Source: Somniosus microcephalus (lineage: Eukaryota). Taken from it: a DNA stretch of 64,000 nucleotides. A program made the translations under genes and the position numbers. This document shows positions 2,381 through 56,275 of this stretch, piece by piece. Every line of letters begins with the position of its first letter. Position 1 is the stretch's first letter. The notes under the pieces are model-generated. The model saw nothing but the letters and a program-made list of their open reading frames with translations. It was not told the DNA's origin and searched no databases. The stretch spans positions 31,744,001 to 31,808,000 of the forward strand of contig JBMRGM010000043.1 in NCBI GenBank assembly GCA_052327205.1, written 5' to 3'.

Positions 2381-3335
2381 TGTGCTGCCTCTCCCTCTAA
2401 CTTAACCTCACTGTATGTATTTAACTTACTTATATATGTATAACCTACCTGTTGGGGCCGTTGCCCCTTTAACTTACCTTTTAGGGCCATTGCCCCTTTA
2501 AGACGCGCCTTAGCGTGCTGACGTCACGTACAACGTAGCGTGCTGACGTCACGGCACGTACGACGTGACGTGCGTGAGGCGGCTGCCGGCCCGACTCGGC
2601 CTTCCAGAAAGGCTGCCGGCACAGCCCGGCCTAGCGTCTTTGGCCGCATCCACCAGCCGCCGGGAGCGACGCGATCTTCCGCTCCCGCGGCAAGCATCGG
2701 CTCAGCCTGGCCTCCAGCTCCCGCTCCCGACTTCGGCCTCCACGGCCAGAAACGCGACCACGCGCATCACGTGACGCCCCAAGCGCGGACAACGCTACCG
2801 AGCGTGATGAGGTCATCACGCTCCCCACAGGACTGCTACGTAGTCCTCGTGGAATCCTCGCTGGGACACAGACCTACACCACGGTGCTCCTACAGCAGCA
2901 CAGGCTCCGGGCAGTTGTATTGTCCCCATGCTTGAGTCTTGGAAATTGTTTGTCTGTAAGTATTTTAGAATGCTATGGATGATTAATGTGCACTGTATGT
3001 TGTAGAAAATGTTTAGTTGTAACTTTTCTCTGCCTAGCTGATTAACTAGTAGCTGTATTTTCATACACTATGTACAGGGCTAATTTAAAGAGAATGCCTC
3101 CCAGTTTACTAAATGTACTGTGTTGCTCAGGCGTACCTAAATCTGTGTATACATATCAGTTATGCGCCTGTATACTAATGTGTGCTTCCATTTCTGTGTT
3201 GTATTTCAGTTTTACAATTAGAATCGTTCAGTAAAGTGTTACAAGAAAAGTCAAGCCTTGTGATTTTATTGGAAGATATCGAGTTGTTCGCTATCTGTCT
3301 AGCTCTGCATAGAATCGCGTTGCGAGGGCAGAACA
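2381..3335 (+). repeat. 5' LTR (955 bp)
   Basis: tgtgctgcct...gggcagaaca; CpG-rich core with TGACGTCA at 2519-2526 and 2544-2551. Confidence 0.97.
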
Positions 3336-3390
3336 GTAAAAAGACAACAGCACAGCGGGCTCAAGCGCAGGAAGATACCACTCAGCTACC

Positions 3391-5634: not shown

Positions 5635-5728
5635 AGAACGAACTCTGAGTATGTTGCAGCCAAAGGACGTTTTCTTCAGGTTTATTTTGTATCTGTAGTG
5701 GTACAATGGAATTGTACCAAGCGGGGAG

Positions 5729-6688
5729 TGTGCTGCCTCTCCCTCTAACTTAACCTCACTGTATGTATTTAACTTACTTATATATGTATAACCTACCTGT
5801 TGGGGCCGTTGCCCCTTTAACTTACCTTTTAGGGCCATTGCCCCTTTAAGACGCGCCTTAGCGTGCTGACGTCACGTCACGTACAACGTAGCGTGCTGAC
5901 GTCACGGCACGTACGACGTGACGTGCGTGAGGCGGCTGCCGGCCCGACTCGGCCTTCCAGAAAGGCTGCCAGCACAGCCCGGCCTAGCGTCTTTGGCCGC
6001 ATCTACCAGCCGCCGGGAGCGACGCGATCTTCCGCTCCCGCGGCAAGCATCGGCTCAGCCTGGCCTCCAGCTCCCGCTCCCGACTTCGGCCTCCACGGCC
6101 AGAAACGCGACCACGCGCATCACGTGACGCCCCAAGCGCGGACAACGCTACCGAGCGTGATGAGGTCATCACGCTCCCCACAGGACTGCTACGTAGTCCT
6201 CGTGGAGTCCTCGCTGGGACACAGACCTACACCACGGTGCTCCTACAGCAGCACAGGCTCCGGGCAGTTGTATTGTCCCCATGCTTGAGTCTTGGAAATT
6301 GTTTGTCTGTAAGTATTTTAGAATGCTATGGATGATTAATGTGCACTGTATGTTGTAGAAAATGTTTAGTTGTAACTTTTCTCTGCCTAGCTGATTAACT
6401 AGTAGCTGTATTTTCATACACTATGTACAGGGCTAATTTAAAGAGAATGCCTCCCAGTTTACTAAATGTACTGTGTTGCTCAGGCGTACCTAAATCTGTG
6501 TATACATATCAGTTATGCGCCTGTATACTAATGTGTGCTTCCATTTCTGTGTTGTATTTCAGTTTTACAATTAGAATCGTTCAGTAAAGTGTTACAAGAA
6601 AAGTCAAGCCTTGTGATTTTATTGGAAGATATCGAGTTGTTCGCTATCTGTCTAGCTCTGCATAGAATCGCGTTGCGAGGGCAGAACA
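5729..6688 (+). repeat. 3' LTR (960 bp)
   Basis: Same sequence as the 5' LTR except a 5-bp indel in the acgtcacgt repeat and about 3 substitutions seen by eye. Confidence 0.97.
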
Positions 6689-6694
6689 GGTACC

Positions 6695-8772: not shown

Positions 8773-8803
8773 ATGATTCACATCTGTCGCCTTCTGACCT
8801 TGT
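8773..8803 (+). CDS. Gene A exon S1 (signal peptide part 1, MIHICRLLTL)
   Basis: 31 coding nt then gtaagt, phase 1; conserved in B. Confidence 0.85.
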
Positions 8804-9408: not shown

Positions 9409-12400
9409 GGCGGAGCGGGAGAGGGAGTCAGTGCGAAAGACAATCAGATAGGGACAGAGAGAGACAGATAGACAGAGATTGTAAGAAAGTAACAATTAAG
9501 CTGTCCACGAAGGAGAGTGACAGAGAGAGAGAGAGAGAGACGGCAGGAGTTTTTTTTTCAACTCAGTTTTGCAGATTCACGATGAAGGGCTTCTTTTATT
9601 TTCTGTTGTGAGGGAGAAAATAGACATTAACGGGACGACAACACTTGAGTTAACAAAGCTGAGGAGAACATATTTACTATGATTATACTTGACCTAAACT
9701 GACGGCTTAAGGGTGTTTGGCAAGGAAATTTAAAATGCTGCATCTTTAAAATTAATTTCTGATGCTGTTTATTGGAATTTAGACAGAAATGACTCTTTAT
9801 GGCCACAGGACATTGAGGCTGCCTTCCTGTGAGATGCTGACGTCAGCGCTCTATTGGCTTGTTAACCACTGGATCACAAGCCCAGCAAACAGGAACAAAC
9901 AACAGGGTTTGCATCTTTAATGTACCACCGACTCTTTCACCAGAATCTCATCTATTTTAGTAACTTGACATCAGTTGTGGGACCATGTTGGTCACAGCTA
10001 CTTCCACAGATTAATGAGGTAGAGCTTAAAATATGTGAAGTTAACCTCAAGTTGTTCATTCTTGAGCATATAATAGGCCCCATGATTTATTTGTTGCACA
10101 GCACATGAAACCCACTTTTTGGAAATATTGGCCTAACTGAATGCTTGAAACATTCACCCTATTGAATCCTAGCTGGACAAAAGTCCCAGGTTCTACATGT
10201 TGAACAATGAAATACAGACACATCTGCATTGACCATTGACCCTTTTGCAATTATATTTGCAAGGTTTGCAGCAGCAGGCATTGCCTTAGTAGTCTGATTC
10301 CTGTGGCCTGAGGCGCGACAAAAGCTTCCTGCTGCTTTCTGCTGCTAGCGGCTGGGTCATGTATTGTCTTCACGAGTATCAGTTGCAACCCAGGTAATAC
10401 TTGTGATTCTGAATCGATTAAAGATGAGTTAACTGATGATAGGAACATACCAACAGGAGTAGGCCATTCAGCCCTTCGACGCTGCTCTGTCATTCAATTA
10501 TATGATGGTTAATCTGTACCTCCACTCCAATTACCCCACTTTGCTCAACATCCATTGTTACGCTTACTCAACTCGTGTCAGCCGTGGCTCAGTGTATAGC
10601 ATTCTCGCCTCTGAGTCAGAAGGTTCGTGTGATTCCGGTCCCACTACAGGGACTTGAGCACAATCAACTAAGCTGATACTCCAGTGCAGTGCTGAGGGAG
10701 TGCCGCACTGTCGGATTGGCCGTTTTTTATAATAGACGTTAAAGTGAGACCCCTTCCAGGGTGTTTATCCCTGGTGCCCTGGGCAATATTTGTCCCTCAA
10801 TCAACATGACAAAAACAGATAATCTGGTCATTATCAACATCATTGTGTGAACATTGGCTGCCACATTTCCTACACTGACTAAACTTTAAATGTCCTTCAT
10901 TGGTTTTAAAACGCTTTGGGAAGTTCGGAGGTCTTGAAAGGCGCTATAGGAAGGCAAATATTTCTTTCATTTTTTAACGAAGATCTATCGATCTCCGTCT
11001 TGGAAGTACCAATTTACCCGCAAAATCCACAGCGGTTTTTGTAAAGAGCGTTGAAATTTCTCACTACACATTGTGTGAAAAAGTGCTTCCTGATTTCCAT
11101 CCTAAATGGCCTATAAACAATTTTAATGAAATATTCCCTTCTCCTTGACAGAACAATCACACTCATTGGCTCTCAGAACAATGATACATTTCAATATTTG
11201 TCAGTTTCCTTTCATCCGGCAGCAACTTTTCCATATAGTCCTCAGACCATGGGGAACTTCCACAAAATAACAATTTATCTTTGTCTGTGAGAGGGACAAT
11301 TGGCATCATTCGATATATTAATATTTTACATTTACTTCAACTGAACTGAATACCTCGTGGCATGTATGGACTGGCAGCAAATGTGTTTCCGCCTGTTTTG
11401 TGTCCCTGCCGAAGTCAAATTTCAACCCCTGGGTGTTTCCTCTATTCAGCTGCCTTACAGCTGAGCAGCTGAGGTCAAACTTGAAGATGGTCTCAGATAA
11501 TGAAACATATTTTACATTGTCTTCTCTCTTGCAGTGCAAATTACTCATCAGGCGACCACACAAGGTATGATGACAATAATGTCCTTTATTGATAATAATC
11601 CAGTTGTGGAATGAACGCTTCCAATTTATATCTATAGGACAACAACAATCCAGCAATGGAGTAATTATCAGCTGTTCGCCCGTGCGTAAAACTGTGGTTC
11701 TGGACTCGCCACCTATGAGAAACTTTCGGTCATCATTTTCATTGATTCGGTGGGAATGTAAAGTGGGCGGTTTCTCTCACGGTCGGCCAATCAGAACCCC
11801 AGTTTTAAGCCTCGGCGCCAAGTTTAATGTCTACCACAATATATTAAAGAAAAAGCGACCTAGAAATTTGTCTGTGTAACTGCTAGATCATTTAACTGTG
11901 GGTTGGCAGCGAGTAATCATAACTGAGTAAATAAATGGATGGATAGATAGACAGTTCTTTGTTGAAGTAACAGGGAATGCTAATCAAATTAGTGCAGTTC
12001 ACTGTCGTGTATATAGACTTTCAAAAAATGCCTAATGAAGTACCACACAACTGATTTGTTCGCAAAAATCGTATTGTTATCATTGCGATTAAGGGGTACG
12101 GACAGCGTGGATAAGAAATTGTCTGAGACAAGGAAGCAGAGAATAGTTTTCAATTTTCGTTTTCTGTGATTGGAAGGGAATATTCAGTGTTATTCATAGT
12201 CATAGAGTTATACAGCACAGAAAGAGGCCCTTCGGCCCATCGTGTACACGCCAGCCATCAAGCCCTATCTATTCTAATCCCATTTTCGAGCTCTTGGTCC
12301 GTAGCCTTGTATGCTGTTGCGTTTCAAGTGCTCATCTGAATGCTTCTTGAATGTTGTGAGGGTTCCTGCATCTACCATTTCATGATGATATGGAAATATA

Positions 12401-15400
12401 TGGAAAGCGTACTTATTCTGTGTCGCTTTTATGCTTTCGCTAGTAAATCTGATGGGAGAGTGCATGGAGCACACTCCGACCATTCTGTTCTGCAATGACA
12501 TACGGGGTGGGAGGCGGTGACTAGTGGTGTTTTGCAAGGATCAGTGCTTGGGCACCAGCTATTCACAATAAATATCAATGATTTGGATGAGGGAACCAAA
12601 TATAATATTTCCAAGTTTGCTGATGAAATGACACGAGGTGGGATCGTGAGTTGTTATTAGGAGGCAAAGTGTCTTCAAGGAGATTTAGACAAGTTGAGTG
12701 AGTGGGCAAAACCATTGCAGATGCAGCATAACGTGGATAAATGTGAAGTTATCCACTTCGGTTGGAAAAACAGAAAGGCAGAGTACTAAATAAATGGTGA
12801 TAGATTGGGAAATGTTCATGTATAAAGGGACCTGTGTGTCCTTGTACCCCAAACACTGAAAGCAAATATGCAGGTACAGCAAGCAGTTAGGAAGGCAAGT
12901 GGTATGTTGATATTCATTGCAAGAGGATTTGAGTACAGGAGCAAGGATGTCTTTCTACAGTTATAGAGGGCCTTGGTGAGACAACACCTGGAGTACTGTG
13001 TGCAGTTTTGGTCTCCTTACCTAAGAAAGGATGTACTTGACATAGAGGGAGTGCAGCGAAAGTTCACCAGACTGGTTGCCGGGATGGCAGGACTGTCGTA
13101 TGAGGACAGATTGGGTCGACTAGGCCTGTGTTCACTACAGTTTAGAAGAATGTGTGGATCTCATTGAAACGGTTAAAATTCTGGCAGGGCTACGCAGACT
13201 GGATGCAGGGAGGATGTTTCCCCTGGCTGGCGTGTCTAGAACGAGGGGTCACAGTCTCAGGATACGGGGTAGGAAGTTTAGGACTGAGACGAGGAGAAAC
13301 GTCTTCACTCATAGGGTGGTGAACCTGTGGAATTCTCTACCACAGAAGGCTGTGGAGGGCGAGTCACTGAATATATTTAAGAAGGGGATAGATAGATTTC
13401 TAGACACAAAAGGCATCAAGGGGCATGGGGAGAGAGCTGGAATATGTTTGTGAGACGTAGGATCTGCCATGATCATATTGAATGGCAGAGCATGCTCGAA
13501 GGGCTGAATGGCCTACTCCTTCTCCTATTTTTCCATGTTTCTGTGTTTCTAAGCTGGGTCCGGTGTAAATCACAAAATCCTGATTTGCATGGTGACAGAG
13601 GAGTACCGCCAGGAAAAGGCAGGTGCTTCTGCCGCCCAAAGGTCGGCCATTCTAAAAGTTTAAGCAGCCAGGGAGTTTCCGTTTACAACGTGCTGAGGTC
13701 GATATCAACGATGTAAAGTCATCACCAACTCAAAAGATCGATCCATGGGCACCCGATAGGTAGCGCCCATTTTGGACAGCGACTAGAAATTCTCTGTAGT
13801 GGATATTGCACAGATTAGTTTCAACAATTCTAATCAGAACATTATTTTATTTTCATTCTACAGCCCATGTCCCAGAAGTAGTCCTTAGCAATCCGAGCGA
13901 TGGAATCGTGAAAGAAGGGGAGACATTTTACCTGCATTGTCGATACAGAGGCATGAATCAATGGGCTTATTGGTATAAAGATGAGACTTATATTCATTAT
14001 AAATATATGTTCTTTGAAAGATATGCAGATAGTCGCAGTGGAGCGTCTTACCAGTGTTCAGTGCCGCTGCTTTGGTCCTCCTCTGAGAAGAGTAAACCTC
14101 TGGATTTAGTCACCATTGGTAGGTAAACTTCGACACCAATGATCATAGCACAGTTTTAGTCGAGAAATGTGTCGCTTATAAAGGGGCCTCACAGTCAAAT
14201 ATAGTACAGGATATCAAGCACATGCAATACTGGGATAAAATTGGACCACTGGGCAGAAGTGTATCTTCATCCCTCCTCCTAACAGGGGGACCTCTCGGTT
14301 TCCCCAGAGTTGAAATATATGCCGCTATTTTGTGCGGTAGTATCAGCCAGTTTCACCTCCCATTTATATCACATTAACTTCAATTGAAATATCGCACAGA
14401 GTCTAAATCTACCCAAATTCTTACATGTTGTTAGGTCAATCAAATGTTATTTATTTCAAGAGAGACCTTAAACCGCTAATTGTGCATGGAACAGCGGCTC
14501 TCTAAAACAGCAGATACGAGAAAGCCACCGTTAATATCTCCTAGAGTAATTTTAAGACTGTGTTGAAAGCTTAAATTCTATTTCCAAAGTTCAAACTACA
14601 AAATCTGTGATCTGCAAACTAGTTTATATTAATAATAATGACATCTGAGAATTGCTGTGTCGCTGGTCTGATATGCAATGACTTCTCCATTTAAACATTA
14701 CTTCATCCTCTGCGAAGTAGGTTGTAGGGTGACCCATCACAGGTTTAAAATCCAACTTTGGTGGAAGCACGTAATGGGCTCTACTCTCTCCAACCCTGTT
14801 ACAAATCAAATGTAAAAGTCATAAAACCGACTGCTGTTTCGTATTCGCTCATTTGCCGCCAATGTGTATTACAAATTTATACCGGAGTGGGAATAACTTT
14901 ACCTTTCATCGCAGGGTGAAATAAACAGGCGAGGTCCAATCAATCGCCATGTTTTAGATTCAGGTGGAGTCGCATTTCTATTTACTTCAGTGTTAAATAA
15001 ATCGAGAGTGGTTTGAAACTTATGGCTGCTCCATTACTGCCCTTTGGCCTCTTGGCGGTAAAAGTGAAAAGTAGCTCAAGTGTATCCTCCCGGCGCTCCC
15101 CTGGGATCAGGATTGGTTGGAAGTGCATCTGCAGACCCGAGGCATGGTGAGAAGTGGAGTGTACATTTATCTTGTGTCTCTCAGAAAACAAATTATTATG
15201 AGGTGCAACGAATGCTTTTATCTAGGTAATAAGCAATGCTAGAAAAATTGTTGATAGGTGACTAACTAGGGGCGCTCCTTGAGCACTGCCACAAGTTTAT
15301 TGTATGTGCAGTGCAAAAACCCTTTACATACATAAATGGGGTTCCCTTCCGCACACCTGGCGAAGTTACAGCGGAGGAGCGAAGGCAGGAAATTGCCCTG

Positions 15401-18400
15401 TGTTTCCACAAAAGTTAATGGGACAATGAGCAGCTAATTTGTTTGGTCTTGCTGGACGAACGAGCAATACCCCAGGACACTGGAACGACTTCTTCGTCTT
15501 GGCGTCGTTCAATGGGATTTTTAACTGATATCAGAAGCACCTGAACAGGTGAAAGCGGCCACGGTTTTAATATCTTGATTCCACAACATTTACAAATACC
15601 AGACGTTTATTTAGAGAGGGCTGGGCATCTGCCTGGCTGTTGAATCGATCCTCGCCATTGAACTTCGTTGATGAAACCTTGAAGGGCAATATGAGCAGTG
15701 ATAGCTCAGCATTAGAAAGGGAACGGTCACTCTCTGAACCAATAAACATTAGTTTGGCTTTTCAGGTCTTAAAATTACTTTTAGTTACTGAGGTGATACC
15801 GATTGCTCTGGATATTGAGCTGCACTTTCAAGCCAATGTTTTTTAACATTGAAGAATGGTGCTTTAACATATTTTAATTTGTATTTCGTTCATATGTTTC
15901 ACTTTTTTTGCAGCTTCTGATATGAATTTAACTCTGGAAGTGAATCCAACATCCGCACTGTCAGGTGACAGTATTATCCTGAAATGTTTGATGCCTTCCT
16001 GGAAATGGAGAGAAGGTTTTCCCTTCCTGTGGTATCGAGATAAACAGTTAATAGCAGAAACTGACGAATCTCAGTACACCATAGAAAACGCAAAAGAGTC
16101 AGATACGGCACCATATCGGTGTGAACTCAAAATACGTTACAGGAAGTGGATCTCCCCGAATGTAACCATCACCATAAAAAGTTGGTCACTGCTTTTCTTT
16201 TTCATTTTCTTTATTTGATCTGGTAATGAGCTGTTGAAGGATGTGAAGTATTCTAAGAATCCTTGGCCTATATATGACTGCACAACCACAGAAATGTGGT
16301 TGACTCTTAATCCCCTCTGAAATGGCCTGGCAAGCTACTAAGTTTTATCAAAGCACGAGAAAAAACTGTAAGATTAAAACTTGGAGGAACACCTGGCATT
16401 GAACTAGGCATCATATTCGGACACAGATAAGACACACAGTCAACCCTGCAAAGCCCTCCTCCCTAACATCTGGGGACTTCTGCAAAAATTGGGACAGCTG
16501 TCCCACAGACCAGTCAAGCAATAGCCTGTCATAGTGATGATCACAGAATCATAACTTCCAGCCAATGTGGTGGCTGGGTGGTGACAGAGTGATGTAACTG
16601 TGAATATTTGCAGAATTCACAGTGATCATAGTAGATGTTGAGACACAGCAGGGAATAGCGAAAAGAGCAAAGTTCTATTGAAGGATTCATACTTGAATAA
16701 GTCTTGCACAGCGTGGAGTTCCTGTATCAGCAGAATATATTAAGCAGATTAAGTTCTCCGCAAACAAAGCAGCGAGTGCAAATCCATAACAATATAGTAA
16801 TGCTGCCTACTGGAGTGTTCCACAATACAGCTGCTGGTTACCATTTAGTACAGTCGCACCTCGTGGTGGTTCTTGGTATATCCTTGCTCTTGTTATCAAT
16901 AATCTCTGCTATTTGTTTAACTATATGAGATGAATTCTTACCTCCCAATCCATATTCTGTTTTCACCGAACTCTTCTCCAAACCTAAACTGAGGACTGAG
17001 CCTGCAGTTAAAATATTTGAGGTAGACCAGTTAAAATTCATTTTTTTTATTGAAACAATGCTGTTCAATATTAGGCTTCAATACACATTTCACAAAAATG
17101 GCAAAGCTCTGCAGTTGAATTCATACATCAACTCTAAGCACATGGGGGCAGCTTCTTTGAAGGGCTCGGTGACTTAGCCTTGTTGAGCAAATGCTTTCTA
17201 CCACCGTGATAACAACAGAGTGATGAGGTTTCCATTACGGTAGAAGGTAAATAGAACCAGCTGTAATTACTGTTCATCTTTCATTTAAAGAATTCTTCAG
17301 GGGATTATAGATAAATAAATATACGGGAGGGATCCAATGTGGAAAAAGATTTACTCCCAGCTTTATCACATAATAAATCAATTTTGGATGTGATCTGTTT
17401 AAATCAAAGCGCCACCTGGTTCTATAAAAAATCCATACATTTACTGAAACCCACACTTGTAATAGCTGCAACGTTTGAAGACCAGTGTCCACTCCCAGTG
17501 GCTAATATTAGCTTCCTGCAATAGTGTCGAATGGGCGATACTGAATTTGCCTCCCATTATATGTCCCTCCCGTGTTTGCATCGCATCATTATCATTGGAC
17601 AGGAACATCGTGCGTGGTGTACAATTGGTGCAAGATTCGATACCACGCGTTTTACACCATGGATCCAAGGTCAAGTTACCTCCTCTGTTTCTGTCTGACT
17701 GAATCAGCAACGAGCAGAACCTGGTCAGGAACAGCACGGTGTTTAATCAGACAGTGCCTTACCACTTACTAGTCCCGGCAATCGTTGCTAGCTGAAATCT
17801 CGGTGCTAAAATTTAACTTGGAGAGTGCAGTAGATAATTGGCAGACAAGGAAATCGAATTTCACCTGTGTGTAGATAGTATGGCCAATGAGCTACTACCG
17901 GTTTTGCACCCCAGACAAACTTGAATTTCCACCCCTCCAATTTCAGTAGAGGGGGATGACGGGGTGGCAAAACGCCGGAGGCTATTGAAGGCTGAGCCTC
18001 TGATGTCCGGCCTCTCGATTGCATTCAGTTAGAATCTGCCAATCATAACTCTATCTTTACATTTTAAAAGGAGCAGGCAATCAGAACACCAAGTGGGTGT
18101 TATCGATCCTGTGTCATCAGTGGATTTTCAAAGAATTGCATTGTCCATAGCTGAGCGTTTAACATGAATGTCCTAAAATGTGAAGGTGCTGCAACAATGA
18201 CCAATGAGGTTTCAGTATTTAAGACTTGGGCATAAAGCATCGCCTGGGCGGAGAGCAGAGTCCAAAATCTGAGTGGGGGGAATGGGGTGGGCTGAAGAGG
18301 GATAATCTCACAGGACCCGCAGGATGTTTCCTCCATTCATTTTAACGGAAGGGTTAACTTCTCCCCAAATCTAGCCACGAGAGTATGTTCAGATGTCGGT

Positions 18401-21400
18401 GTTCCAAAATGCATCTTTCTATAAACCGAGTGCAATCAAGGATTATTGAACGGCTCTTTCTTTGAACCGCTGTCAGCATTTCATTGCTCTGATCATTAAC
18501 TTGTGTTATCCAAACAAATACTTTCATAAATCTTTGAGAGATGCTTCAGCTGGTAAATCTATTTTTTACTCTTTTATAGAGCTCTTCTCCAAACCTACAT
18601 TGAGGGCTGATTCTGAAGCTCAAATATTTGAGGGCCAACAGTTAAATCTCGCATGTTCGGCTGAAATATTTCGCTCCAGTTCGTCTTTGAGATATGTATT
18701 TTTCAAAGATGAACAAGCTCTCAATTCAGCGGCAGACCACAACTATTACATCAAGGAGACATCACTGCTGGACGATTCGGGGATTTACCAGTGTGAAGCA
18801 AGTACTTTGAACAGTGAGGTGAAGAAACTGAGTAATCAGGTTTCTGTTTCAGTCAGACGTGAGTACAATTTACTGTTAGAATTTAGCATCTTTCATCCAC
18901 AAAATTCCCAGCAGGTTCGCACACGGGGATTGATCCGTGAAGAAAGGGCCTTACCTATATGTTCAACATGCACTGAATACATAAATAACTAAATTATTGT
19001 CGCATAGACAACAGGGGAAAGGAAATAATAGCATGTTTATACAACACATTCGTGAGGCCACAGATACTGTGTCCAATGTCCTGCCTTCCATTTTAAAGAG
19101 AACAGTAAAATCACAGAAAACGGGAAGCGTTGATTCACCAGATGACGCCAGGGATGGAAAACTTTATTCACCAGAATAGACTTGAGCTACTGGCACGAAC
19201 ACTACCGGAGTAGCCATGGCTAAGAGTTATTTCATTACTGTTTATTACATGATAAGACCGAGATAGGGTGATAAGGGAATGGTATTTACTCTGATTGCGA
19301 AGACAGGAAGGAGGGATCATTGATGTATAATTATCAATATAAGCGGGAGGATAGCTTAGAAGAACGTTCTTTATTCGAGGATTGCTGGAACAAAGAATGA
19401 TTGGCCAAGTGGAGCAGTGGAGTTAGATGCAATTGCATTTAGGTAGATAGTGTTTATGGTACTGGAATAGTGCAGAGTTAGTAGGAATCAGTACCAGGCC
19501 AGAGATAGTAGGGTGGCCACTAGTGGATTGCAATAGGAATCATTGCAGTTCCAGAATCAGTTTTTCCTCTATTAATTCCACTGACTGCTGAAGTAGGAGA
19601 GGGGCACGGGCGCCCAAGATTGGAGTGGTAACCTAAATGACGAGGCTCTTTATTTTGATGAGAGCCCTATTTCACTTTGAAAGTAATACTACAAATTCCA
19701 CAAAAGCAATGTAATTAACAAATGGTTATATTTACAGGAATCCCAGTGTCCAAACCAGAACTGGCAATCAGCCCTGGTAAAGAGTTACTGGAAGGCGACA
19801 CAGCATCGTTAACCTGCTCAGTGTTCAACGGTTCTACCCCGATTACCTACATATTCTACAAAGGCCCGAATAAAGAACTCTTCCGAGAGGAGTCCAACCT
19901 AACCGAAATTACTTACCAAATCGGTAAAGTCAACCAAAGCACCCAAGGGGATTATATTTGTGGTGTTTCAAATGAAGCGACCAGACGTCCTCTACACAGC
20001 GATTTTGTTACGGTTGCAGTGCTAGGTGAGTTATTATAAATACCTCTGAGGCAGAACGAAACTAGTGACTCAAAGTGAGAACAGTCCGGGAATCATTGCT
20101 TTTGCCAATAGCTTGGACGTTGTAACATCTTCTTTGACATTCTTCTGTGTGAAGTGAGGCACTGCGCCATTTACATTAAACAGGTGAATGCCTAAAAAGA
20201 ACAAGAATGTCATCTGATTGCATCAAATATTGGTCTACAAACTGCAACTGTTAGTTGTAGATTTAAAACGGCCGATCAGTCTGTTTAATTGACAAATTGA
20301 GAGAAGTTATACGGAGAGGTTAATGACGACTCAAATCTTAATACCATCGGCAGTAATTTTTGGGCTATAAATTTTAGAACATCATCTCTTAACCGTAGCT
20401 GCTAATACTTTTGTATTTGTATATGGGATTGGGAGTCGCTGGCAACATTTGCTTTAATTGGCCATCCCTAATTGCCCTTGAGAAGGTAGTGGTGAGCCAC
20501 CTTCTTGAACCGCTGCAGTCCACGTGGTGAAGGTACTCCCACAGTGCTGTGAGGGAGGGAGTTCCAGGATATTGACGCAGGAGCGATGAAGGATCGGCGA
20601 TATACTTCTAAATCAGGGCAGTGTGTGGCTTGGAGGGAACCTTGGAGGTGATGGTGTTTCCATGCCCCTGCGGCCCTTGTCCTTCTTGGGGGAAGAGGTC
20701 GCGGGTTTGGGAGGTGCTGCCGAAGAAGCCTTGGCGAGTTGCTGCAGTGCATCTTGTAGATGGTGCACACTGCAGCCACGGTGTGCCAGTGGTGGAGGGA
20801 GTGAATGTTTAAGGTGGTGGATGGGGTGACAATCAAGGGGGCTGCATTGTCCTGATGGTGTTAAGATTCTTTAGTGTTGTTGGAGCTGCACTCAATAGAA
20901 AAGTGGAGAGTATTCCATCACTCCTTAATTGTGCCTTGTAGATGGTGGAAAGTCTTTGTGGAGTCAGGAGGTGAGACACGCGCCAGAGATTACCTAGACT
21001 CTGACCTGCTCGTGCTGATAATATATTTCAAGCTCAGTTGGACAATATAGGTTCCATCCCTATATTGGAAGATGGGCAACAGTGGAGCCCTCAGGCTTTC
21101 GGCCCGAATTAAGCTTTGCTCTGAAGCGGGCCATTGTAACTTTAGCCGAAGGTGAAACATGGGTCATATCGTAGAGTTCGCCCATTATAATCAACGTCAT
21201 ATATTTCCTTCCATTGCCTGGTGGATTCCCCCCGCATTGTTCTGTATGTAACTCAGCGCAAGTTGTACTGATGGCTCATTGTCACCACCACATTGAGGCC
21301 GGTGACAAAGGAAATCTGCACATGTTTCAGTGCATTAACGAACCTACCTGAAAACAATCATCTTGTTTGTCCACTCGCTATATTTCCCGTTTCATATACA

Positions 21401-24400
21401 GTCCTGTTGAAAACTTTCAATTTTGGAAGAAAACCTACTATTTGGTGTTATGTGCAGAAACATTAGTTAGAACTAATATTCAATATCACTAATGGAACAG
21501 CGCAAGGACAATTCTGAACTAAATATTTTCGCCAATGCATTTACACCTGATCAACAATTCTTGCACCAGTCTGATTTATTTATCTGATTTAATCTAAGTG
21601 AGTACTCAAAATAGGTTTCAATTTTGAATTGTAACTTGCAGAATTAATTCTCTACATCTTTAATCTTATCTGCTTTCCACTAGTTCCTGCAGCTGGTGCT
21701 TCTCTCACTTCCAATGCCAACAAAACTGAGATTTCAGCGGGGGACCGTCTCTTTCTCCAGTGCCTGGTGAAGAGAGGCACTGCACTGCTTTTCCGCTGGT
21801 ACCTGAACAACCAACAGTTAGGAAACAACAGCGAATCTTATCACTTAAGCAGGGACGGGAGTGAACTCATTATCAATTCATTCCAGACAGGCCATGGAGG
21901 TCGATATCACTGTGTAGCGACCAACAGAGGGAGCTTTGAAGGAATAGTAATGACAACCAGCAATTATATCGATGTCACGGTACCATGTAACAGAACATTG
22001 TGCTTGATCTAATTTTATGAAATACTTTTCTTCCGTCAAAGTAAACAGTATATTGAATTTGCATGACTTATATCTCATAAAGAAAACATTGCAGCTCAGG
22101 TGGAAATTTATAAGTATAGTTTCTGATTAAGAAATTGAACTTAACTAGGTGAAAACCGTGCTGAAATAAACTAGCAAATTTTCACAAGGGTGCTTTTGAA
22201 GTTGAAATTGATAAGGATACAAAGCAGAGCCATGGTCATAAAGTGACAGAGAGGGGAAGTTTGGGAGGGGTGAGCAAAAACCTGGCTGCAAATATGGTTC
22301 CTGTGAGGATGTTTGAAGCAGGCTGTAGTAGAGGTGGTTTAGGAGAGTAGAGCCAAAGCACTTTCACTAATGGTGTGACACAGGAAGCGCGTGAGCCCAA
22401 TAGGCCACAAATTAACTGACTGAGGGCTGTAAGGATGGAGATATAATTGGAGGATATATGTAAGAAATATAGTGAACACGACGACCAGGTGTTTAAAATT
22501 GTTACATTCGAGGACAGGAAGCTAGATTGGAAAAGTGGCGAGTAGGAATTGGTGTGGGACAGGGATGTCTTGTTTAGTTGTAGTTTGTGGATGGCGGCGT
22601 TGGGAGCTCAGCAAGGAAGGCATGGTAATAATCGACCCTAGAGCTGACAAATCCATGGACCAATGTTCCAGGTTCGTGGGTCTCAGGTGGGTAGAAAGGG
22701 AATCCATTCAGTGCAGATTTTAAAAACAATTTTAATTCGGTGTATGGTGCGGTGTTGGATTTGTAATGCTTGGAATGGTTTTATGCTATTCATGTAATAA
22801 GTTTGTTTGATTCCAGCACAAAGTCACACAACCGCGATCACAGCAACAGTTCTTCCACTTTTTCTGATCGCTGCCCTGATTGCACTGGTTTTCTTCAAAC
22901 TTCGGAAGCAGAAACAAGGTGAGCAGTGTCTTCCGGGCAGGTGATTGGCTCGACAGACACGGGATGGGATTCATTACCCAACATATTCAGTTGCATCATT
23001 CGAAATGTAACAGACTGATTTGAGAGGGAGAGGCACAGTTTGGGCAGGAGTGCAAAGAGTTATTTACATGGATGAATTCGGTTGATGAACTCACCTTGCT
23101 TAGTTGAGGATATGTTTCCGCTTCTACCATTCTCAAAAGGAATAAATCTGTGCCAGGGGGAGAATAATAACTGGCACGTGGTTAGGAAGAGAATGTGAAA
23201 TCTGCTTGATGATTTGTAATGATTGGTGATATCTTAAATTTTTCCAGAAGTTCTTTGTGCATTCGTGCTCTGTTTTATTTAATTATTGATATAAATGCAC
23301 GTGTGTAACAGTTTTTAATTATTAACAATGAAAATGCTTACTGTCTGACGATTATTTCAGGAAACCAAAACCATCTCTAGGCAGTAGAAGTGCCATATTT
23401 ATTGCACAACTTGCTGAAATATGTCTCTTTCTATTTTATCCAGACAATTCCTCAAGTGTTTCACAGCCGCAGGGGTAAGTCTGCAAAATCTTTATATTAG
23501 TCCATCGTAACTATATCCATGATTATACTGAAAGCTGAAAATCCTCTTTGGCCCGGGTGCAAATTATACGCCCCCAATTGGAACCGAATATTGGACTCGA
23601 CCTAGACGGTCGCTAGTTGCGCCTTTTATGCCTCCACGTACAAATGGAATTACACCCCATAGTCTCTGATATAGCTCCGATGGAGACGGTTGGAATGTTT
23701 AAGTGCTAAATACTCTCTTTTTTTGTTCTTGCTTTTTAGTTTATCAACAGGTCAGTCAGCCTAACATAGTTATTGGAAACCATTATTAGGGAAAAAATAA
23801 ACATTAATTTGTAAAGACATTGTTTAATCAAGGAGATGCAACATGGATTTGTTAAAGGAAATCATGTGTGACTAACTTGATTGAATATTTGATGAGTTAA
23901 CAGAGACTTTTGATCAAGATGGTGTAGTAGATGTTGCATATATTGACTTGCAGAAGGCAGTCATCCGAGGCTTGTTAAAAAAGATGTAAACCCATGGGAT
24001 TAAGGGAAAGTGGCGTTATGGATACAGAATGGGCTCGGTGACAGGAAGCAGAGAGTGGTGGTGGATGGATATTTCTCAGACGGGGAGGTGGTTTTGCAGT
24101 GGTGTTCCCCAACAGTCATTTTGGGGTCCAGTACTCTTTGAATTTTAATGACTGACCTAGACAAAGGTGTAAGGAGCAACATTGTAAATCTGCAGATGAT
24201 ACATAACTTGGCCAGGTAGTAGATTGTGATGAGGATAGTTGTAGTCTTCAGGGTGACATAGACAGGAATGGTTAAATGGGCAGAAGCATGGCAGATGGAG
24301 TTCAACCTGGAACTGTGAAGTGATGTACTTTTGGAGAACTAATCTGGAAAGACAATATACAACAAAAGCCACGATTTTGAAAAGTGTAGATGAGCAGAAA

Positions 24401-27400
24401 TCCTTTGGTGTGCATATACACAAATCCTTAAATATGACATGGCAAGTAGATAAGTTGGTTAAAGAAGCATATGGATCATTTGTTTTTTTAAAATAGCGGC
24501 TTATAATGTAAAAGCAAAGAGAACAAGCTAGAACTTTATGAATCAATGTTTAGGTCTCAGCTGGACAATTCATGGTAGCAACTCATCAAGGCTTCTTCGG
24601 CAGCAGCTCCAAAACACGCAAACTCTTCCAACTAGAAGGACAAGGGCAGCAGGCGCATGGGAACACCACCACCTCCAAGTTCCCCTCCAAGTCACACACC
24701 ATCCTGACTTAGAAGTATATCGCCGATCCTTCATCGCCGCTGGGTCAAAATCCTGGAACTCCCTCCCTAACAGCACTGTGGGAGTACCTTCACCACACGG
24801 ACTGCAGCGGTTCAAGGAGGCAGCTCACCACCACCTTCTCAAGGGGCAACTAGGGATGGGCAATAAATGCTGACCTTGCCAGCGACACCCACATCCAAAA
24901 TACGAATAAAACCACACTTCAGGAAACATAGTAAGAGGCAAAGAAAGGTTACAGCGGAGGTTTACAGGATATTGCAAGGGATGAGGGACTTTATTTACGA
25001 GCAGTGGTTGGATAATTAGGACATGGAATAGAGAAGGTTAAGAGGTGAGCCATTAGAGATTTTCAAGGGGATGAGAAGCTTTGTTAGAGTAGATAGAGAA
25101 ACAATATTCCCTCTTGGTCAATAACTAGAGGTCATAGATTTAACATCATTGTATAAAGATCTTGAGGGGAGATGTGGAGAAATATTTTTCAATGAGAGAG
25201 TTGTCGGGATGTAGAATGCTCTACCTGAAAATTTGGTGGAAGCTATTTCCATCAATAACTTTAGCAGTGAGTTGGACGGATCGTTGACGATGAGGACCAT
25301 TTAGGGCTGCGGACAACAGCCAGGGATATGGGACTAAGTACGATTGCTCCTTCAAGGCATTCTATGTTCTGTATATCTACTTCTGAATTCTATGATTCTG
25401 TAACATTTCGTTAAAAGTTAACTTTGCGTTGTTGATGCATGAATCCTAAATATCTGAGAACATTTTCGTGCACAGTGTGGCAACTGAAAATAAATCTCTA
25501 ACCCCGAGTGAAGAAACATCTGCGAACAATTTCGAGTATGCAGTTGTGGGATCAGCCCGAAATACCGGTAAGCGTGAACTGACACATGTGAAAAATATGG
25601 TAGATTGTTCATGGTAACATTGGTTCTGCCGGTAACCCATCGTATCTTCGGTGGAATATCGGTAAATATTCAGGGAAACGGCCATATATGCATGGCTTGC
25701 GGCAATATTCCACTGACGTTGTGACAGGACATGGTGGAAATCACCCATGGACATTGGAGTTCTTCATCTGCAAGCATTCAGAATACCCTCGTGTTAGATT
25801 CCCATCTTATTGTCTGGGTATTAAGCATCGCATGGGTCGAGCATACTCAGGGAAATAGTTGAGGCACTTGGCACGGTTCAATTGAACCATGTTAGTGGAA
25901 AGAAAAGCTGGTTGGTTCCGTAAAGGATGTGCCTGTTGCCCCAGCAGACTGAGCAGTCTGCGCTCTTTGCAGGTGATGCTAACTGTTCCGATGCCAAAAC
26001 AAAAATCTACCCCCTATTCCCTTTTAATTTTGAATTCATTATTTCCTCTACCTCTCATTTTTCTTTTTTCTGATGGTAGTGGTTCTCAATCGGCTGGGAT
26101 TGATAGGTGGACATCTGGGTGCTAGTCCAAAGTTTTAATCTCGGAACCTGATAATCAGACATATTGAACAATATCTTGAGTATTAAATTGATTTGGGGAA
26201 CTGTCTCCTCCCCACCATTACGAATCAACTTTCCAAGCAAAGGATGCTGGAACTGGTCCTCAGCCCGATATCTGGGTGCCTGGAATGGAGTAATCAGAGA
26301 ATATGCTTCTCACCGTCACCCTGTTTACAAGCAAGCGACTCAGCCCAGCCCTATGGCTTGGGACCAAAACACTTCATGAATTTGCTCACGGGACGGTGGA
26401 TCAGCTTGTATTGATCAGGATAATTAGTTGCTTAATTTTAATACCAGTAAACACAGCAGTAAATTTCTAATCATGAATTGTAGGTTGTGTCTGGTATCTA
26501 AATGCTTCCTTAATTAACTATGTCATTGAGCACAGTTTCCATTTATTCTCTCTGCAGCTTCTATTTCCAATCATATAATCTACAGTGTAGTCCAAGGCAC
26601 GAAACCTATGGAAGGTAAGGATTCGCCTTGTTACTTGGCTGGAGGGATTTGTATATCTCATAGGGCTTCATAACTACTGTGAGGGTAGCGACTGTCTTCA
26701 GACTGTGAGAAGTAATCTGGGAAGGGTCTGAATCCATTGATGCATTATAGGACTGGCACCACAATCGCAGTATTTGTAAATGACAAAATCACTATTGGCA
26801 CTTTGTAAGTTCCATCTCTCGGGAGTAGTATCCTTAGAACCTGCACACGAACTCCACTGTTCTGGTTTTTAGATAACTATTGTGTGGAACATCGTAATTG
26901 GCCAGACTCTTAATGTCACCATAACATGCAACGACGATAACAAATCCTTAATATAACTCGATCGATACAGTTGAAGGCAAGTAACGTGTACATTTGGCAA
27001 ACATAATCCATTCTTGGACATTTAAATCAATGCTATGCAATTAATGGTTATATAACTGAGGGGAATGATATGCTCTAATTCCATGCACTATATACATATT
27101 ATGGATACTAATACGATTTTCTCAATTCATTATCGCTGTCAATTAATTTATACCAAGCAATCAGTCAGTCTAGCTCTGTAAATAGGTATCCATGTGTCAA
27201 TCAATATCTTTCTATCTATGACTTTGCTCACGGGCCTGTGGAGCAGCTTTTATTGATCAGGTTAATTAGTTGCTTCATTTTAAAACCAGTGAACACAGCA
27301 GTAAATTTCCAATCATGAATTGTAGGATGGATCTGGTATCTAAGTGCTTCCTTGATTATCATTGATCGCAGTTTCCTCTTTCTCGCTCTACAGCTTCTAG

Positions 27401-30400
27401 TTCTGATCAGATAACCCACAGTTTAGTACAAGGCACGAAGCCCATGGAAGGTAAGGATTCGCTGTGTTACTTTGCTGGAGGGCTTGTTAACTACTGTAAG
27501 GGTAGTGACTGTCTTCAGATTGTGAGACATCATCTGGGAAGAGCCTGAATCGATTGATGCATTATAGGACTGAAACCACAATACCAGTATTTGTAAATGA
27601 AAAAAATCACTATAGGCACTTTGTAAGTTCCATCTCTCGGGAGTAGTATCCTTAGAACCTGCACACAAACTCCCCTGTTCTGATTCTTAGATAACATCAT
27701 AATTGGCCGGACAATTAATGTTGCCATAAACTGCAATGACGATAACAAATGCTTAATATAAGTCGATCAATAAAGTTGAAGGCAAATAATGTGTACTTTT
27801 GGTGGCAAACATCATCCATTCTTGGACATTTAAAACAATGCTATTCAATTAATGGTTATATATCATCCTTATTAAACTTATGGAAATGACATCATCTATT
27901 CCCATGCACTAAATTCATATTATGGATACTAATACGGTTGTCTCAATACATTATCGCTAGCAATTAATTTATATCAAGCAATCAATCAGTCTACCTCTGT
28001 AAATAGCTATCCATGTATCCATCAATATCTTTCTATCTATGTATCTATCTATCTTTATATCTATCTTCCAAATATCTATGTATCTTTCTATCTATCACTC
28101 CATGTCTTCCTCCCTATTTCTCTATATATATCTATCGTCCCTCTATCATCTATATATTAATCCATCTTAATGAAGCCTTATTTTTGTCTTGTTTTCTCTT
28201 TTTGTTTCTGTTTAGATATTACCGGAAATGCTGCCAATTTAGTGTATTCGGAGGTCACGATCAGAAAGTCACGAGGCTGTGGTAATTTCTGTCAATTGTT
28301 CGCAGCTGTTGCTAAGCAAGATGATAATTACAGTTCTACATAATGTTGGGTTATTCCTCTGCTTGATATAGTGGGAATGAGGTACATGGACTGTAAACTA
28401 AATAGTGGGGAGGGGGGAGGGTTCAGTTGAAGGGGAATTTAGAAAGTCAAACAGAAAGGAGGAGGTAACAGTGCAAGGTAGCGATAGGGGTAATGATAAC
28501 CAGAGATTGACAGGAGGAGACAAAGCATACAGACATAAACGTGCACTTGCAAACAGATTCAGAGTAGTTAAAAATGGTATAAAAATAAATAAAAGCTCTT
28601 TAACTGAATGCATGCAGCATTCATAACAGGATAGATGAGTTGCCGGCACAAATCGAAATAAATGGGCATGATCTGATAGTCATTACAGAGACGGGGTTGC
28701 AAGGTGACCAATTCTGGGAACTGAATATTCAAGGGTATTTGATATTTCGGAAGAATAGGCAGAAAGCAAAAGGAGTTGGGTAACTCTTTTAATAAAGGAT
28801 GTGATCAGTGCAGTGGTGAGAAATGATATTGGCTCAGAATATCAAAATATAGAATTTGTTTTAACGGAGATAATAAATAGTAAGGGAAATAAATCATTAG
28901 CGGGAGCAGTCTATAGCACTCCTAACTGTAGCTACACTGTGTAGGACAGTGTATAAATCAAGAACTAATAGGGGCTTGTAAGTAAGGTACTGCGATAATC
29001 ATGGGCGATTTTAATATTCATATAGCTAGAACAAATCTAATTGACAAGGTTAGCCTTGAGGACGAGTTCATAGAATGTATTCGGTATGGTTTCTTAGAAC
29101 AATACGTTGTGGAATCAACCAGGGAGATGGCTATTTTAAATCTGGTAATATGTAATGGGGCAGGATTAATTAATGATCTCATGGTAAAGGATCCTCTTGT
29201 GAAGAGCGATCATAGCATGATGAATTTCTAATTCAGATTCAGGGTGAGAAACTTGGGTCTGAAACTTAAATAAATTCAATTACAAAAGGTATGAAGAAAG
29301 AGTTGGCTAAAGTAGACTGGGAAAATAGATTAAAGTGTAAGACGGTAGATAGGCAGTGACAGATATTTAATGAGATTTTTCATAACTCTCAGCAAAGATT
29401 TATTGCAGTGTGAAAGAAAGACTCTACGAGAAGGATGAACATCCGGGGCTAACTGACGAAGTTTAGGATGGTATCAAATTGAAAGAAAATGCATAATATG
29501 TTGCAAAGATTCGTAGTAGGTGAGAATTGGGAAATTTTTGAAAATCAGCAAAGGATGACTAAAAAATTAATAGAGGTAGAAGATAGATTATGAAAGTAAA
29601 CTAGCAAAGAATATAAAAAAACAGAGACTAAGAGCTTCAACAGGTATATAAATGAAAGATAATAGCTAAAGTAAACGTTGGTCCCTTAGATGATGGGACT
29701 GGGGAATTAGTAATGGGAAACGGGGAAATTGCAGAGACATTTAACAAATATTTTGTATTGGTTTTCACGGTAGAAGACACAAAAAGCATCCCAATGATAA
29801 TTGATAATCAAGGTGCTGTATTCACAATATATATCTAAAATTTGGGTGAGGGTCCCAAATGTAATATTTCCAAGTTTGCTGACATCACAAAACTAGGTGG
29901 GATTGTGAGTTGTGAGGAGGAGGCTAATAGGCTTCAAGCTAATTTAGACAAGTTGATTGAGTGGGCAAATACATGGCAGATGCAGTATAACGTGGATAAA
30001 TCTGAAGTTATCCATTTCAGTACGAAAAACAGAAATGCAGAATATTATTTAAATGTTGATAGATTGGGAAATGTTGATGTACAGACGGACCTGGGCGTCC
30101 CTGTACACCAGTCACTGAAAGCAAACATGCAGGTGCAGCAAGCAGTTAGGAAGGGAAATTGAATGTTGGCCTTCATTGCAAGAGGAGTTGAGTACAGGAG
30201 CGAGGATGTACATTTATACAGGGCCTTGATGAGACCTTGGGAGTACGGTGTACAGTTTTGTTTTCCTTACCTAAGAAAGGATATACTTACGATAGAGGGA
30301 GTGCAGCGAGGGTTCATCAGACTGATTCCTGGGATGGCAGGACTGTCGTCTGAGGAGCGATTGGGCCGACTAAGCTTTATTCACGAGAGTTTAAAAGAAT

Positions 30401-44742: not shown

Positions 44743-44997
44743 ATCGCAATGTGGCCTTCCAGGTCGACCCATGTTCGGTTTTGGAAGGAGATGTTCTGAA
44801 TTTGAATTGTCGGTACAGGAAGTATTATTTCTGGAAATATGTTGGCTTTTTCAAAGGCAATAGAAGGATCCACTCAATGAAGTTGAATCATTGGAATGCT
44901 CTGCATAGCATTAGGGTGAATAGTTCAAATGACAGCGGATCGTACCATTGTACTAATGACAAAAAGATTTCTCGAAGTGTTCATGTTCACGTTCATG
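44743..44997 (+). CDS. Gene B Ig domain 3 exon (FcR D2-type; absent from gene A)
   Basis: DRNVAFQVDPCSVLEGDVLNLNC..VGFFKG..DSGSYHC..VHVH; ttag| and G|gtatgt; 255 nt. Confidence 0.85.
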
Positions 44998-45428: not shown

Positions 45429-45465
45429 CCACAAGCATTCGGAGCGCTGCTCCTTCGTCAGGTGA
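45429..45465 (-). ncRNA. Mutated hammerhead copy in the inverted arm
   Basis: Reverse complement reads tcacctgacgaaggagcagcgctccgaatgcttgtgg (GAAA changed to GAAT). Confidence 0.65.
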
Positions 45466-47493: not shown

Positions 47494-47588
47494 CTGCTGG
47501 TTACCATTTATTGCAGACGCCCCTCGTGGCGATTCTCGGTATTGCCTTGCTCCTGGTAATAAGCTCTGCTCTTTGTTCAACTCAGTGA
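47494..47588 (+). CDS. Candidate alternative terminal exon (GPI-signal/TM-like), gene B
   Basis: cttcctgctccattgttccacaatacag| acceptor in phase 1; AAGYHLLQTPLVAILGIALLLVISSALCSTQ-stop. Confidence 0.55.
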
Positions 47589-47904: not shown

Positions 47905-49216
47905 GTAATTACAGCCAGCTGTAATTATTGTTCATCTTTGATTTAATGGGGCTTATAGTTAAATAAACATACGGGAGGGATCCAGTCTGGTAAAGGATTT
48001 ACCCACATGTTTATCACGTAATAACTCAATTTTGAATGCAACATGTTTAAATCATAGCGCCATCTGGTTATTAGACTATCCATACATTTGCTGAAAAACG
48101 AATTTGTAAAAGCTGCAACGTTTGAGGACCAGTGCCCACTCCCAGTGGGTAATATAAGCTGCTTGCAATAGTGTGGAATTGGGCGCTATTCAATTTACCT
48201 CCCATTATATGTCCAGTCCGTTTTTGCCTCCATTAATTTTCAATGGACGGGAAAATCATGCGTAGTGTAGAATTGGTGCAAATTCCGGTATCATACGTTT
48301 TAACCCATGGCCCAAAGCTAAAGTTACCACCTCTGTTTCTGTTTGGCAGATTCAGCAGCGGGCAGAACCTGGTCAGGAACAGCAGGGTGATTAACCAGAC
48401 AATGCCTTACCACTTACTAGCCCCGGAAATCTTTTATAGTTGAAAACTCGGGGGTAAAGTTTAACATTGAGAGCGCTAAATTCGATCGGCAGAAAATGGA
48501 ATTGAAATTGGCCTCTGTTTGTAAAGGGTGACCAATCTGCTCCACCGGTTTTGCACCCCAGACAACTTGAATTTTCACCCCCTCCAATTTCAGTAGAGGT
48601 GGCGGCAAAACGCCCGAGGTCACTAAAGTCTGTGCCTCTGATGCCCGGGGATTCCTTCCCACTCCGTTAGATCCGGCCAATCATAACTCTAGCTTCGCAT
48701 TTTCCACGCAGCAGGCAATCTGAACACAAGGTGGGAGTTATCAATCCTGTGTCGGCTGTGTATTTCAGAAATATTGTATTGTCAGTAGCTGAGCGTTTAA
48801 CATGAATGTCCTAAAATTTGCAGGTGCTGCAACAATGATCAAGGTTATTTCAGTATTTAAGACCGGGTAGTAAAGCATCGCCTGGGCGGAGAGCTGTGTT
48901 CAAATGGTGGAGTGGTGGGGGATAATCTCAAAGGACTCGCAGGATGGTTCTTCCATTCATTTCAATGGAAGGGTTAACTGGTTCCCCAATCTAGCCACGA
49001 CAGATTGTTCAGATCTCAGGTGATAACTGTGTCAATGTCCCAAACTGCATATTCCCGTAGCAGAGCGCAATCAAGGATTATTGAAAGCCTCTTTCTCTGA
49101 GCCGCTGTCGGCGTTTCATTGTTCTGCTCATTAACATGAGTTGTCCAAACACATAAATTGTTAAGTCTGTGATGGATGTGGAAACCGGAAAATCCACATG
49201 TCATTCTATTTTATAG

Positions 49217-49495
49217 AGGTCTTCTCCATACCGACAGTGAGGGCTGAGTCTGGAACTCAATTATTTGAGGGCCAACAGTTAAATCTCATCTGTTTTGTTA
49301 AAATATTTCGATCCAATACTTCCTTGAGACTCATATTTTACAAGGATGGACAATCTCTCACTTCAGCGGCAGACCACAACTATTACATCAAGGAAACATC
49401 CCTGCCGGACGATTCGGGGATTTACCAGTGTGAAGCAATTGATTTGAACAGTGCTCAGTTTCTTTAGCTCAATCAGGTTTCCGTTTCAGTCGGAC
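49217..49495 (+). pseudogene. Gene B Ig exon with a premature stop created by an 18-bp inversion
   Basis: Paralog of 18580-18858; TAG at 49465-49467 inside the inverted segment 49453-49470. Confidence 0.9.
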
Positions 49496-50721: not shown

Positions 50722-51024
50722 TGCCTGTAGCTTGTGCTTCTCTCACTTCCAATACAAACAAAACGGAGATTTCAGCGGGGGACCGTCTCGTTCTCCAGTG
50801 CCTGGTGATGAGAGGCACTGTACCACTTTTCCGCTGGTACCTGAACAACCAACTGTTAGAAAACACCAGCGATTCTTAACACTTCAACACGGACGGGAGT
50901 GAACTCATCATCAATTCATTCCAGAAAGGGCATGGAGGGCGCTATCACTGTGTAGCGACCAACAGAGGGATGTATGAAAGGATTTTTAATACAACCAGCA
51001 ATTATATCGATGTCACTGCACCAG
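50722..51024 (+). pseudogene. Gene B Ig exon with a nonsense mutation
   Basis: Paralog of 21684-21986; TAT changed to TAA at 50877-50879. Confidence 0.9.
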
Positions 51025-56173: not shown

Positions 56174-56275
56174 TGCAGGGTCCCACAACCGCGATCAGAG
56201 CCTCAGTTCTTACACTTTCTCTTGTCGCTGCCCTGATTGCACTGGTTCTCGTCAATCTTCCCAACAAGAAACAAG
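56174..56275 (+). pseudogene. Gene B TM exon, splice donor mutated
   Basis: QGPTTAIRASVLTLSLVAALIALVLVNLPNKKQ; caag|ttgagt versus caag|gtgagc in A. Confidence 0.8.

Follow-up and report, generated by a model that had tools for sequence, protein, structure and literature searches.

We lean to the view that a hydrophobic reading frame lying between Ig exons of two Fc receptor-like (FCRL) shark genes, here called the tail, is likely a dormant cryptic exon normally skipped by the spliceosome, and not an old regulated isoform switch. We read it as dormant because the frame is stopped in most of its copies, shows no excess of conservation over the intron around it and is entered by no RNA reads, coverage being thin. 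The tail segment was duplicated along with the whole intron in the tandem expansion of an FCRL-like cluster. Its two copies in the analyzed stretch of DNA (the window, C43:31744001-31808000, 64 kb) appear, from sequence comparison, to have been opened through separate events or short conversion, and not to have stayed open through shared conservation. Use of the tail in the lineages with an open frame is possible.

Two FCRL-like genes with an open tail

The original prediction assigned the host genes to the FCRL-like receptors, and this identification holds. Human FCRL5 was the top PDB match of the D3-type exon (E 3e-17; FcγRI, 1e-11), and shark homologs with names were annotated as Fc receptor-like in several sharks. 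The FCRL layout was also seen, with two signal-peptide exons, phase-1 Ig exons, a transmembrane (TM) exon and tyrosine motifs; two signal-peptide exons are described for FCRL loci in the relevant part of PMC4950983. Gene A comprises the following features.

8773..8803, + strand: signal peptide exon 1 (MIHICRLLTL, phase-1 donor)
11535..11564, + strand: signal peptide mini-exon 2
13864..14118, + strand: Ig exon D1, intact
15914..16180, + strand: Ig exon D2, intact (donor GTTGGT, phase 1; reads in RNA run X4)
16831..16928, + strand: tail frame, 31 open codons, weak AG acceptor, no RNA reads
16969..17246, + strand: D3-type Ig exon, dead (CG for AG acceptor, +2 frameshift, stops)
17314..17319, + strand: AATAAA, about 70 nt 3' of the D3 donor
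18580..18858, + strand: Ig exon D4, intact, RNA reads
19738..20025, + strand: Ig exon D4b, intact (top PDB match FCRL5, E 6.7e-29)
21684..21986, + strand: Ig exon D5, intact, RNA reads
22817..22918, + strand: true transmembrane exon
28216..28281, + strand: cytoplasmic exon with ITIM-like LVYSEV
Near 25.5 kb, 26558, 27394 and 33.8 kb: further cytoplasmic exons

Another candidate for signal exon 1, at 9582, was rejected for its wrong phase. The frames of gene A were open where checked (two signal exons, D1, D2, D4, D4b, D5, TM and LVYSEV), and the gene is predicted to encode an intact 5-Ig/TM/ITIM receptor. Since D3, which starts 40 nt 3' of the tail's stop, is dead, this receptor must skip it. 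Gene A would then be read as D1-D2-D4-D4b-D5-TM-ITIM, with the tail and the dead D3 both skipped. D3 was dead in all 14 copies of the A clade (acceptor CG in 13 of 14; frameshift in the representatives checked), and Dx, an Ig exon of gene B, was absent from 5 of 5 A-clade copies checked, giving a distinct D1-D2-D4 layout. Two further observations concern gene A and its surroundings. A tyrosine-motif cytoplasmic exon is tandemly duplicated at 26376-28041 (26558 and 27394), the second copy having His for Tyr. An LTR-like insert lies between two genes at 2381-6689, and its direct terminal repeats of 960 bp (2381-3336 and 5729-6689) are 99% identical.

The signal exons SP1 and SP2 and the Ig exons D2, Dx and D3 are open in gene B, D1 is shortened in frame and D4b is missing. 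The features of its tail region and 3' part are listed below.

44743..44997, + strand: Ig exon Dx, intact, 5' of the tail, missing from gene A
47494..47588, + strand: tail frame, 30 open codons
47629..47904, + strand: D3-type Ig exon, intact
47962..47967, + strand: AATAAA, 3' of the D3 donor
49217..49495, + strand: D4 exon, in-frame stop
50722..51024, + strand: D5 exon, in-frame stop
56174..56275, + strand: TM exon, donor dead (TT)

No ITIM exon was found behind this TM exon within the window. The original prediction had overlooked the breaks in D4, D5 and the TM donor of gene B as well as the dead D3 of gene A. The lesions of gene B and its sister (D4, D5 and TM donor) all lie 3' of the tail, and the sister itself, L026, which is 99% identical, has TAA at tail codon 5. 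Gene B may be a decaying or truncated copy. Without an intact long form it cannot switch between long and short products, so that the idea of a long/short switch within one gene keeps its long half, the intact 5-Ig ITIM form, in gene A and fails in gene B.

The structure of the tail was confirmed as first described. A phase-1 acceptor, ttccacaatacag, stands ahead of both 16831 and 47494 and agrees in phase with the donors further upstream (16180 and 44997). The frame translates to AGYHLVQSHLVVVLGISLLLLSIISAICLTI and a stop in gene A (16831-16928) and to AGYHLLQTPLVAILGIALLLVISSALCSTQ and a stop in gene B (47494-47588). The two copies are separated by a single 3-nt indel, their TGA codons are aligned, and AATAAA is present at 17314 and 47962.

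Both tail frames are hydrophobic to the degree of the true TM exons in the same genes. The best 18-residue Kyte-Doolittle mean was 2.91 for gene A and 2.81 for gene B (base-shuffle P of 0.0012 and 0.00015, respectively). Among 4137 YAG sites on both window strands, a mean above 2.5 was reached at five places, namely both tails, both true TM exons and one other. Across 928 kb, both strands included, comparably hydrophobic chance runs (at least 2.8) occurred at five other places, and an open frame with YAG, phase 1, hydrophobic run and stop occurred at only one non-exon place in 928 kb. The chance runs favor dormancy; the rarity of the complete frame counts against it.

Two candidate origins of the tail were rejected. 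Derivation from the family's TM exon left no DNA similarity (0 of 8 comparisons with P <0.05; P 0.18-0.90). As for a transposon piece, 38 of 38 protein-level matches fell within two cluster regions of contig C43, and DNA-run depth there was far under that of repeats. A Pfam search of both tails (2 of 9 queries) returned no family. The hydrophobic run may descend from a much older TM or GPI exon, or a T-rich stretch close to the D3 acceptor may have produced it by chance.

Most copies of the tail are interrupted

The FCRL5-like array on C43 occupies 30.3-31.9 Mb and 25.3-25.5 Mb and contains about 54 D3-type exons; its repeat units measure roughly 70 kb, their domain layouts vary and many copies are broken. 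Searching the genome at the DNA level gave 41 tail matches at 40 places, 38 of them with the acceptor region; L039 and L040, from which this region is missing, were excluded from the 38. The frame was open in 15 of the 38, comprising 14 A-clade copies and gene B, and was stopped at codon 5 and/or codon 7 in the remaining 23, which does not bear out the earlier claim that the frame is conserved across paralogs. An independent protein search again gave 15 open and 23 stopped copies among 38. All five outgroup copies had a GAG acceptor, additional bases or indels, a shifted frame and stops. Internal duplicates were read in 4 of the 11 cases found, and all four had both stops and an inserted repeat. 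The total of stopped or frameshifted copies was therefore 32 of the 47 read, with 15 open.

One internal duplication, of Dx-D3-D4, is found in L057-L058 (C43:31714000-31733999), where an inserted repeat of about 1.1 kb splits the second tail copy. Among the open copies, the hydrophobic run is interrupted in 4 of the 14 from the A clade, by Arg in L013/14 and by Pro in L011/12. L012 and L011 (L041 2444-4993 and L074 5072-7621, respectively) also keep signal exon 1, lack the second signal mini-exon and have GC as TM exon donor. The proposition that upstream exons are intact in all open lineages is weakened by this missing mini-exon.

The tail changes at the rate of its intron

Genes A and B are 79% identical over the 2.3-kb block surrounding the tail. 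Identity is 82% in the tail itself, vs. 80% in the intron upstream and 81% downstream, and codons 8-31 accumulated 1.15 changes per column vs. 0.89-1.05 in the upstream intron (rate profiles calculated without L016 and L033, which have unrelated upstream insertions). The special conservation attributed to the tail thus disappears once the intron is used as the reference. Within the A clade the tail even diverges faster, with identities of 84-89% vs. 91-94% for the upstream intron. The pN/pS of the tail was 0.95 between A and B and 0.73 within the A clade; because real exons of these genes span 0.6-1.8, the test has no power here, and the proposed comparison of dN/dS and frame across paralogs yielded a clear answer for the frame only, which is broken in 32 of 47 copies.

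We then placed the copies on a tree of 15 rows built from the flanks and D3. The open state needs two changes on this tree, and a single open clade was rejected (AU test, p 5e-5). GTAT at codons 6-7 is common to the outgroup and the stopped copies, and codon 7 requires two changes; an old stop at codon 7 is hence the more economical history, as judged from the tips. Because the open copies belong to two unrelated lineages, a double origin from a stopped state is the most likely history of the open frame. Codons 5 and 7 would both have been stops in that older state, to be removed in each open lineage by a point change or a short conversion. Both lineages arrived at the same codons (TTA and CAG). 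Of the 176 informative sites, 147 show the B-type letter in gene B, and on this ground a long conversion tract copied from the A clade was rejected. The TTG between the two repaired codons of gene B is B-type, too; a conversion tract of a few bases is possible.

When neutral evolution was simulated from stopped tip sequences, the frame opened independently at least twice in 0.3-2% of runs; three A lineages remained open in 4-21%. These simulations took real tip sequences as the start, had two branches capped by hand and are post hoc, since the finding had been chosen for the two open copies in the window. The low neutral probability of two openings counts against dormancy and would suit a young exonization, a possible alternative that we entertain tentatively, in which the frame was regained separately by the A clade (14 copies) and by gene B, both of which would now use it as a terminal exon. 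The product would be a 2-Ig (A) or 3-Ig (B) protein, GPI-anchored or a tail-less decoy, made beside the long ITIM form in A and as the sole product in B. Opening in the A clade coincides with the death of the D3 acceptor, which would remove the competing acceptor and make D3 3' UTR, and the position of the gene B lesions downstream of the tail points the same way. Against young exonization stand the post hoc nature of the simulation, with a window selected for both copies being open, the faster divergence of the tail within the A clade, the second leader exon missing in L011/12 and the stop in the sister L026.

A more ancient origin of the short form was also weighed. An ancestor might have spliced to either the tail or D3, with duplicates later splitting the two forms and long-form genes stopping the tail. 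Past the stops, nearly all ingroup copies do keep the hydrophobic run in frame, L016, L017, L028 and L030 are stopped yet keep intact long forms, and stops could spread by gene conversion. We nevertheless consider such an ancient switch highly improbable: stops would have had to arise at the same two codons in the outgroup and in several lineages besides, the tail shows no rate reduction, no annotated shark isoform bearing the tail was found among the homologs, and gene B is B-type at most informative sites, including the codon between the repaired ones. With paralogs stopped, an intronic rate of change and an acceptor unused by reads under thin coverage, the original prediction of an old, selected switch exon is not sustained, and dormancy remains our preferred reading.

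Resemblance to a GPI attachment signal

According to the sections of PMC10491789 that deal with the motif, a GPI signal has a small residue at omega, a non-Pro residue at omega+1 and a small one at omega+2, Thr being a poor omega. An unstructured polar linker precedes omega, a generally hydrophilic spacer of 8-12 residues follows, and the C-terminal 15-20 residues are hydrophobic and free of charge or Pro. The tail as predicted fits this pattern roughly. The omega triplet at the junction is A-A-G in gene B and L013/14 and T-A-G in gene A and L011/12; the spacer has 7 residues, about half of them polar (YHLVQSH, YHLLQTP); and in gene B and L013/14 a hydrophobic end of 18-22 residues follows A-A-G and the 7 residues. 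The C terminus is hydrophobic and free of charge and Pro in A and B, and not in L011/12 (Pro) or L013/14 (Arg). The polar linker is missing, with omega directly after the last Ig strand (VTITIK, VHVHVH). The hydrophobic end of A and B agrees with the pattern and the absent linker departs from it; the omega triplet and the spacer agree in part. For young exonization, the A-A-G, spacer and hydrophobic end of B and L013/14 are favorable, whereas Thr at omega in gene A and L011/12 and Arg or Pro within the run of 4 of 14 A copies are unfavorable.

Splice sites, polyadenylation signals and RNA reads

The pyrimidine fraction of the tail acceptor is 0.47 in A and 0.60 in B, vs. a median of 0.8 for 18 real acceptors, and equals the two lowest values among those 18. 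An equal or higher fraction was found at 64% (A) and 30% (B) of all YAG sites. An alternative upstream acceptor at 16798, present in the A clade only, would add a linker and has a pyrimidine fraction of 0.40. The AATAAA had been offered as support for a terminal exon. It lies behind the D3 donor, occurs also in the stopped lineages L015, L017, L021, L026 and L033 (12 rows compared), is changed in L016, L023, L030, the internal duplicate and the two rows of the outgroup, and has a chance of 0.33 of occurring within 500 nt. No aligned read ends there, and its value as support is not confirmed.

Two raw-read runs were available, from one study with the same species label and tissue not given, and 24% and 31% of their reads were used. 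At 90% likeness, D2, D4 and D5 of gene A reached depths of up to 4.5, and depth was zero across 16824-17107 in both runs, with thin coverage of the gene. With 80% likeness as the threshold and the central copy L013 as the reference, 0 of 20 aligned reads, representing few independent molecules, fell on the tail, and none of these 20 lay at the tail acceptor or from the D3 donor to AATAAA. This setting would accept entry reads from all four open lineages (13 of 13 lengths each), and an outgroup paralog was detected with it, through five reads (13 of 13 variants). That paralog type, at C43:31.384 Mb (L063 9147-9227), is transcribed (5 reads, run X5). Nine partly aligned X4 reads begin two bases into the D3 position, a start expected for A-type D4 (80% alike) and not for D3 itself, and nine molecules terminate at 16063 within D2. 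Read starts of D4 type together with ends in D2 would fit one duplicated molecule spliced from D2 to D4 and skipping the tail and D3, to judge by the depths. The acceptor-entry check thus lent nothing to the use of junctions 16180-16831 and 44997-47494, no read having entered the tail under thin coverage. The RNA result argues weakly against tail use and, with the weak acceptor, against young exonization.

Secreted forms, as opposed to GPI-anchored ones, might instead use the acceptor or the AATAAA. Proteins from stopped copies would end 4-6 residues past the acceptor, and read-through of the D3 donor would meet a nearby TAA before AATAAA. The AG acceptor is retained in 38 of 38 ingroup copies having the region, and two stretches change slowly: the 14 nt before the acceptor (0.43 changes per column; Poisson P of 0.06 for -14..+14) and the 60 nt that follow the D3 donor (0.65). 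Read-through of the D3 donor (window 47905-47970 and homologs) ends in SQL and a stop 5' of AATAAA in most D3-intact copies, and a predicted homolog, P0035, terminates just after D3; the read-through could possibly give a secreted form by intronic polyadenylation. Other slow windows exist in the same intron (10 of 188), the AATAAA is altered in several copies, and the acceptor and the segment from D3 donor to AATAAA are without reads. We regard secreted forms as very unlikely users of these sites.

Related receptors and implications

The tail was found in none of 164 homologous proteins (13 + 1 from searches, cluster members and 135 profile hits, many of them non-shark), nor among 37 candidates scored in a direct, weak tail search. 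In the shark-like homologs inspected, Dx was followed by D3 or by the TM exon. We found no published shark FCRL GPI isoform in a literature search that was thin in subscription journals.

Through alternative splicing, FCRL5 (IRTA2) is made in secreted and in GPI-anchored versions as well as in a TM version (PMC4950983, in the passages on splicing). Human FCRL5 is thus the same type of receptor, with a GPI splice form already known; the shark tail differs in being a putative exon that is stopped in most copies. Rat gp42, an FCRL6 ortholog, and human FcγRIIIB are two-Ig, GPI-anchored members of the FcR/FCRL family, as summarized in parts of PMC4950983 and PMC4016189. A D1-D2-tail product of the shark genes would share their layout, but gp42 and FcγRIIIB are demonstrated proteins, whereas the shark tail is a reading frame inside an intron, flanked by Ig exons, and not the TM exon of its gene. 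Primate CEACAMs offer a further comparison: duplicates in an expanding Ig receptor family swap an ITIM tail for a GPI signal with minimal mutation. According to the excerpted account in PMC5856374, CEACAMs gain a stop in the TM exon, whereas the shark intronic frame would lose stops. In Xenopus, the XFL family numbers at least 75 FcR-like genes, which have phase-1 exons and combine Ig domains in different layouts, and the shark array is likewise varied. XFL belongs to another vertebrate lineage, and the available portion of PMC2413239 describes TM and putative secreted forms, and not a GPI tail.

It is conceivable, though doubtful, that a dead anchor sequence, interrupted by stops within an intron, regained its open frame on two occasions through identical changes at two codons and came into service as a GPI exon. 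Inhibitory FCRL-like receptors of the shark would in this way have become decoys, with D3 (A clade) or the long form (B) decaying meanwhile. If true, this would be a repeated birth of GPI decoys through stop-codon loss. Should the open copies use the tail, they would provide a datable exon gain by stop loss that happened repeatedly within a single cluster, and sharks would have a counterpart of GPI-anchored FCRL5, gp42 and FcγRIIIB. If the tail is dormant, as we favor, it carries a caution: conservation of an exon cannot be demonstrated from two paralogs about 80% identical, and the impression they give is overturned once the whole family is compared. The cluster itself may outweigh the tail. 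Cartilaginous fishes are said to lack FCRL genes in the statements taken from PMC4016189 (2014) and PMC13337447 (2026), and the 1.6-Mb array, FCRL5-like by its sequence, would contrast with that stated absence.
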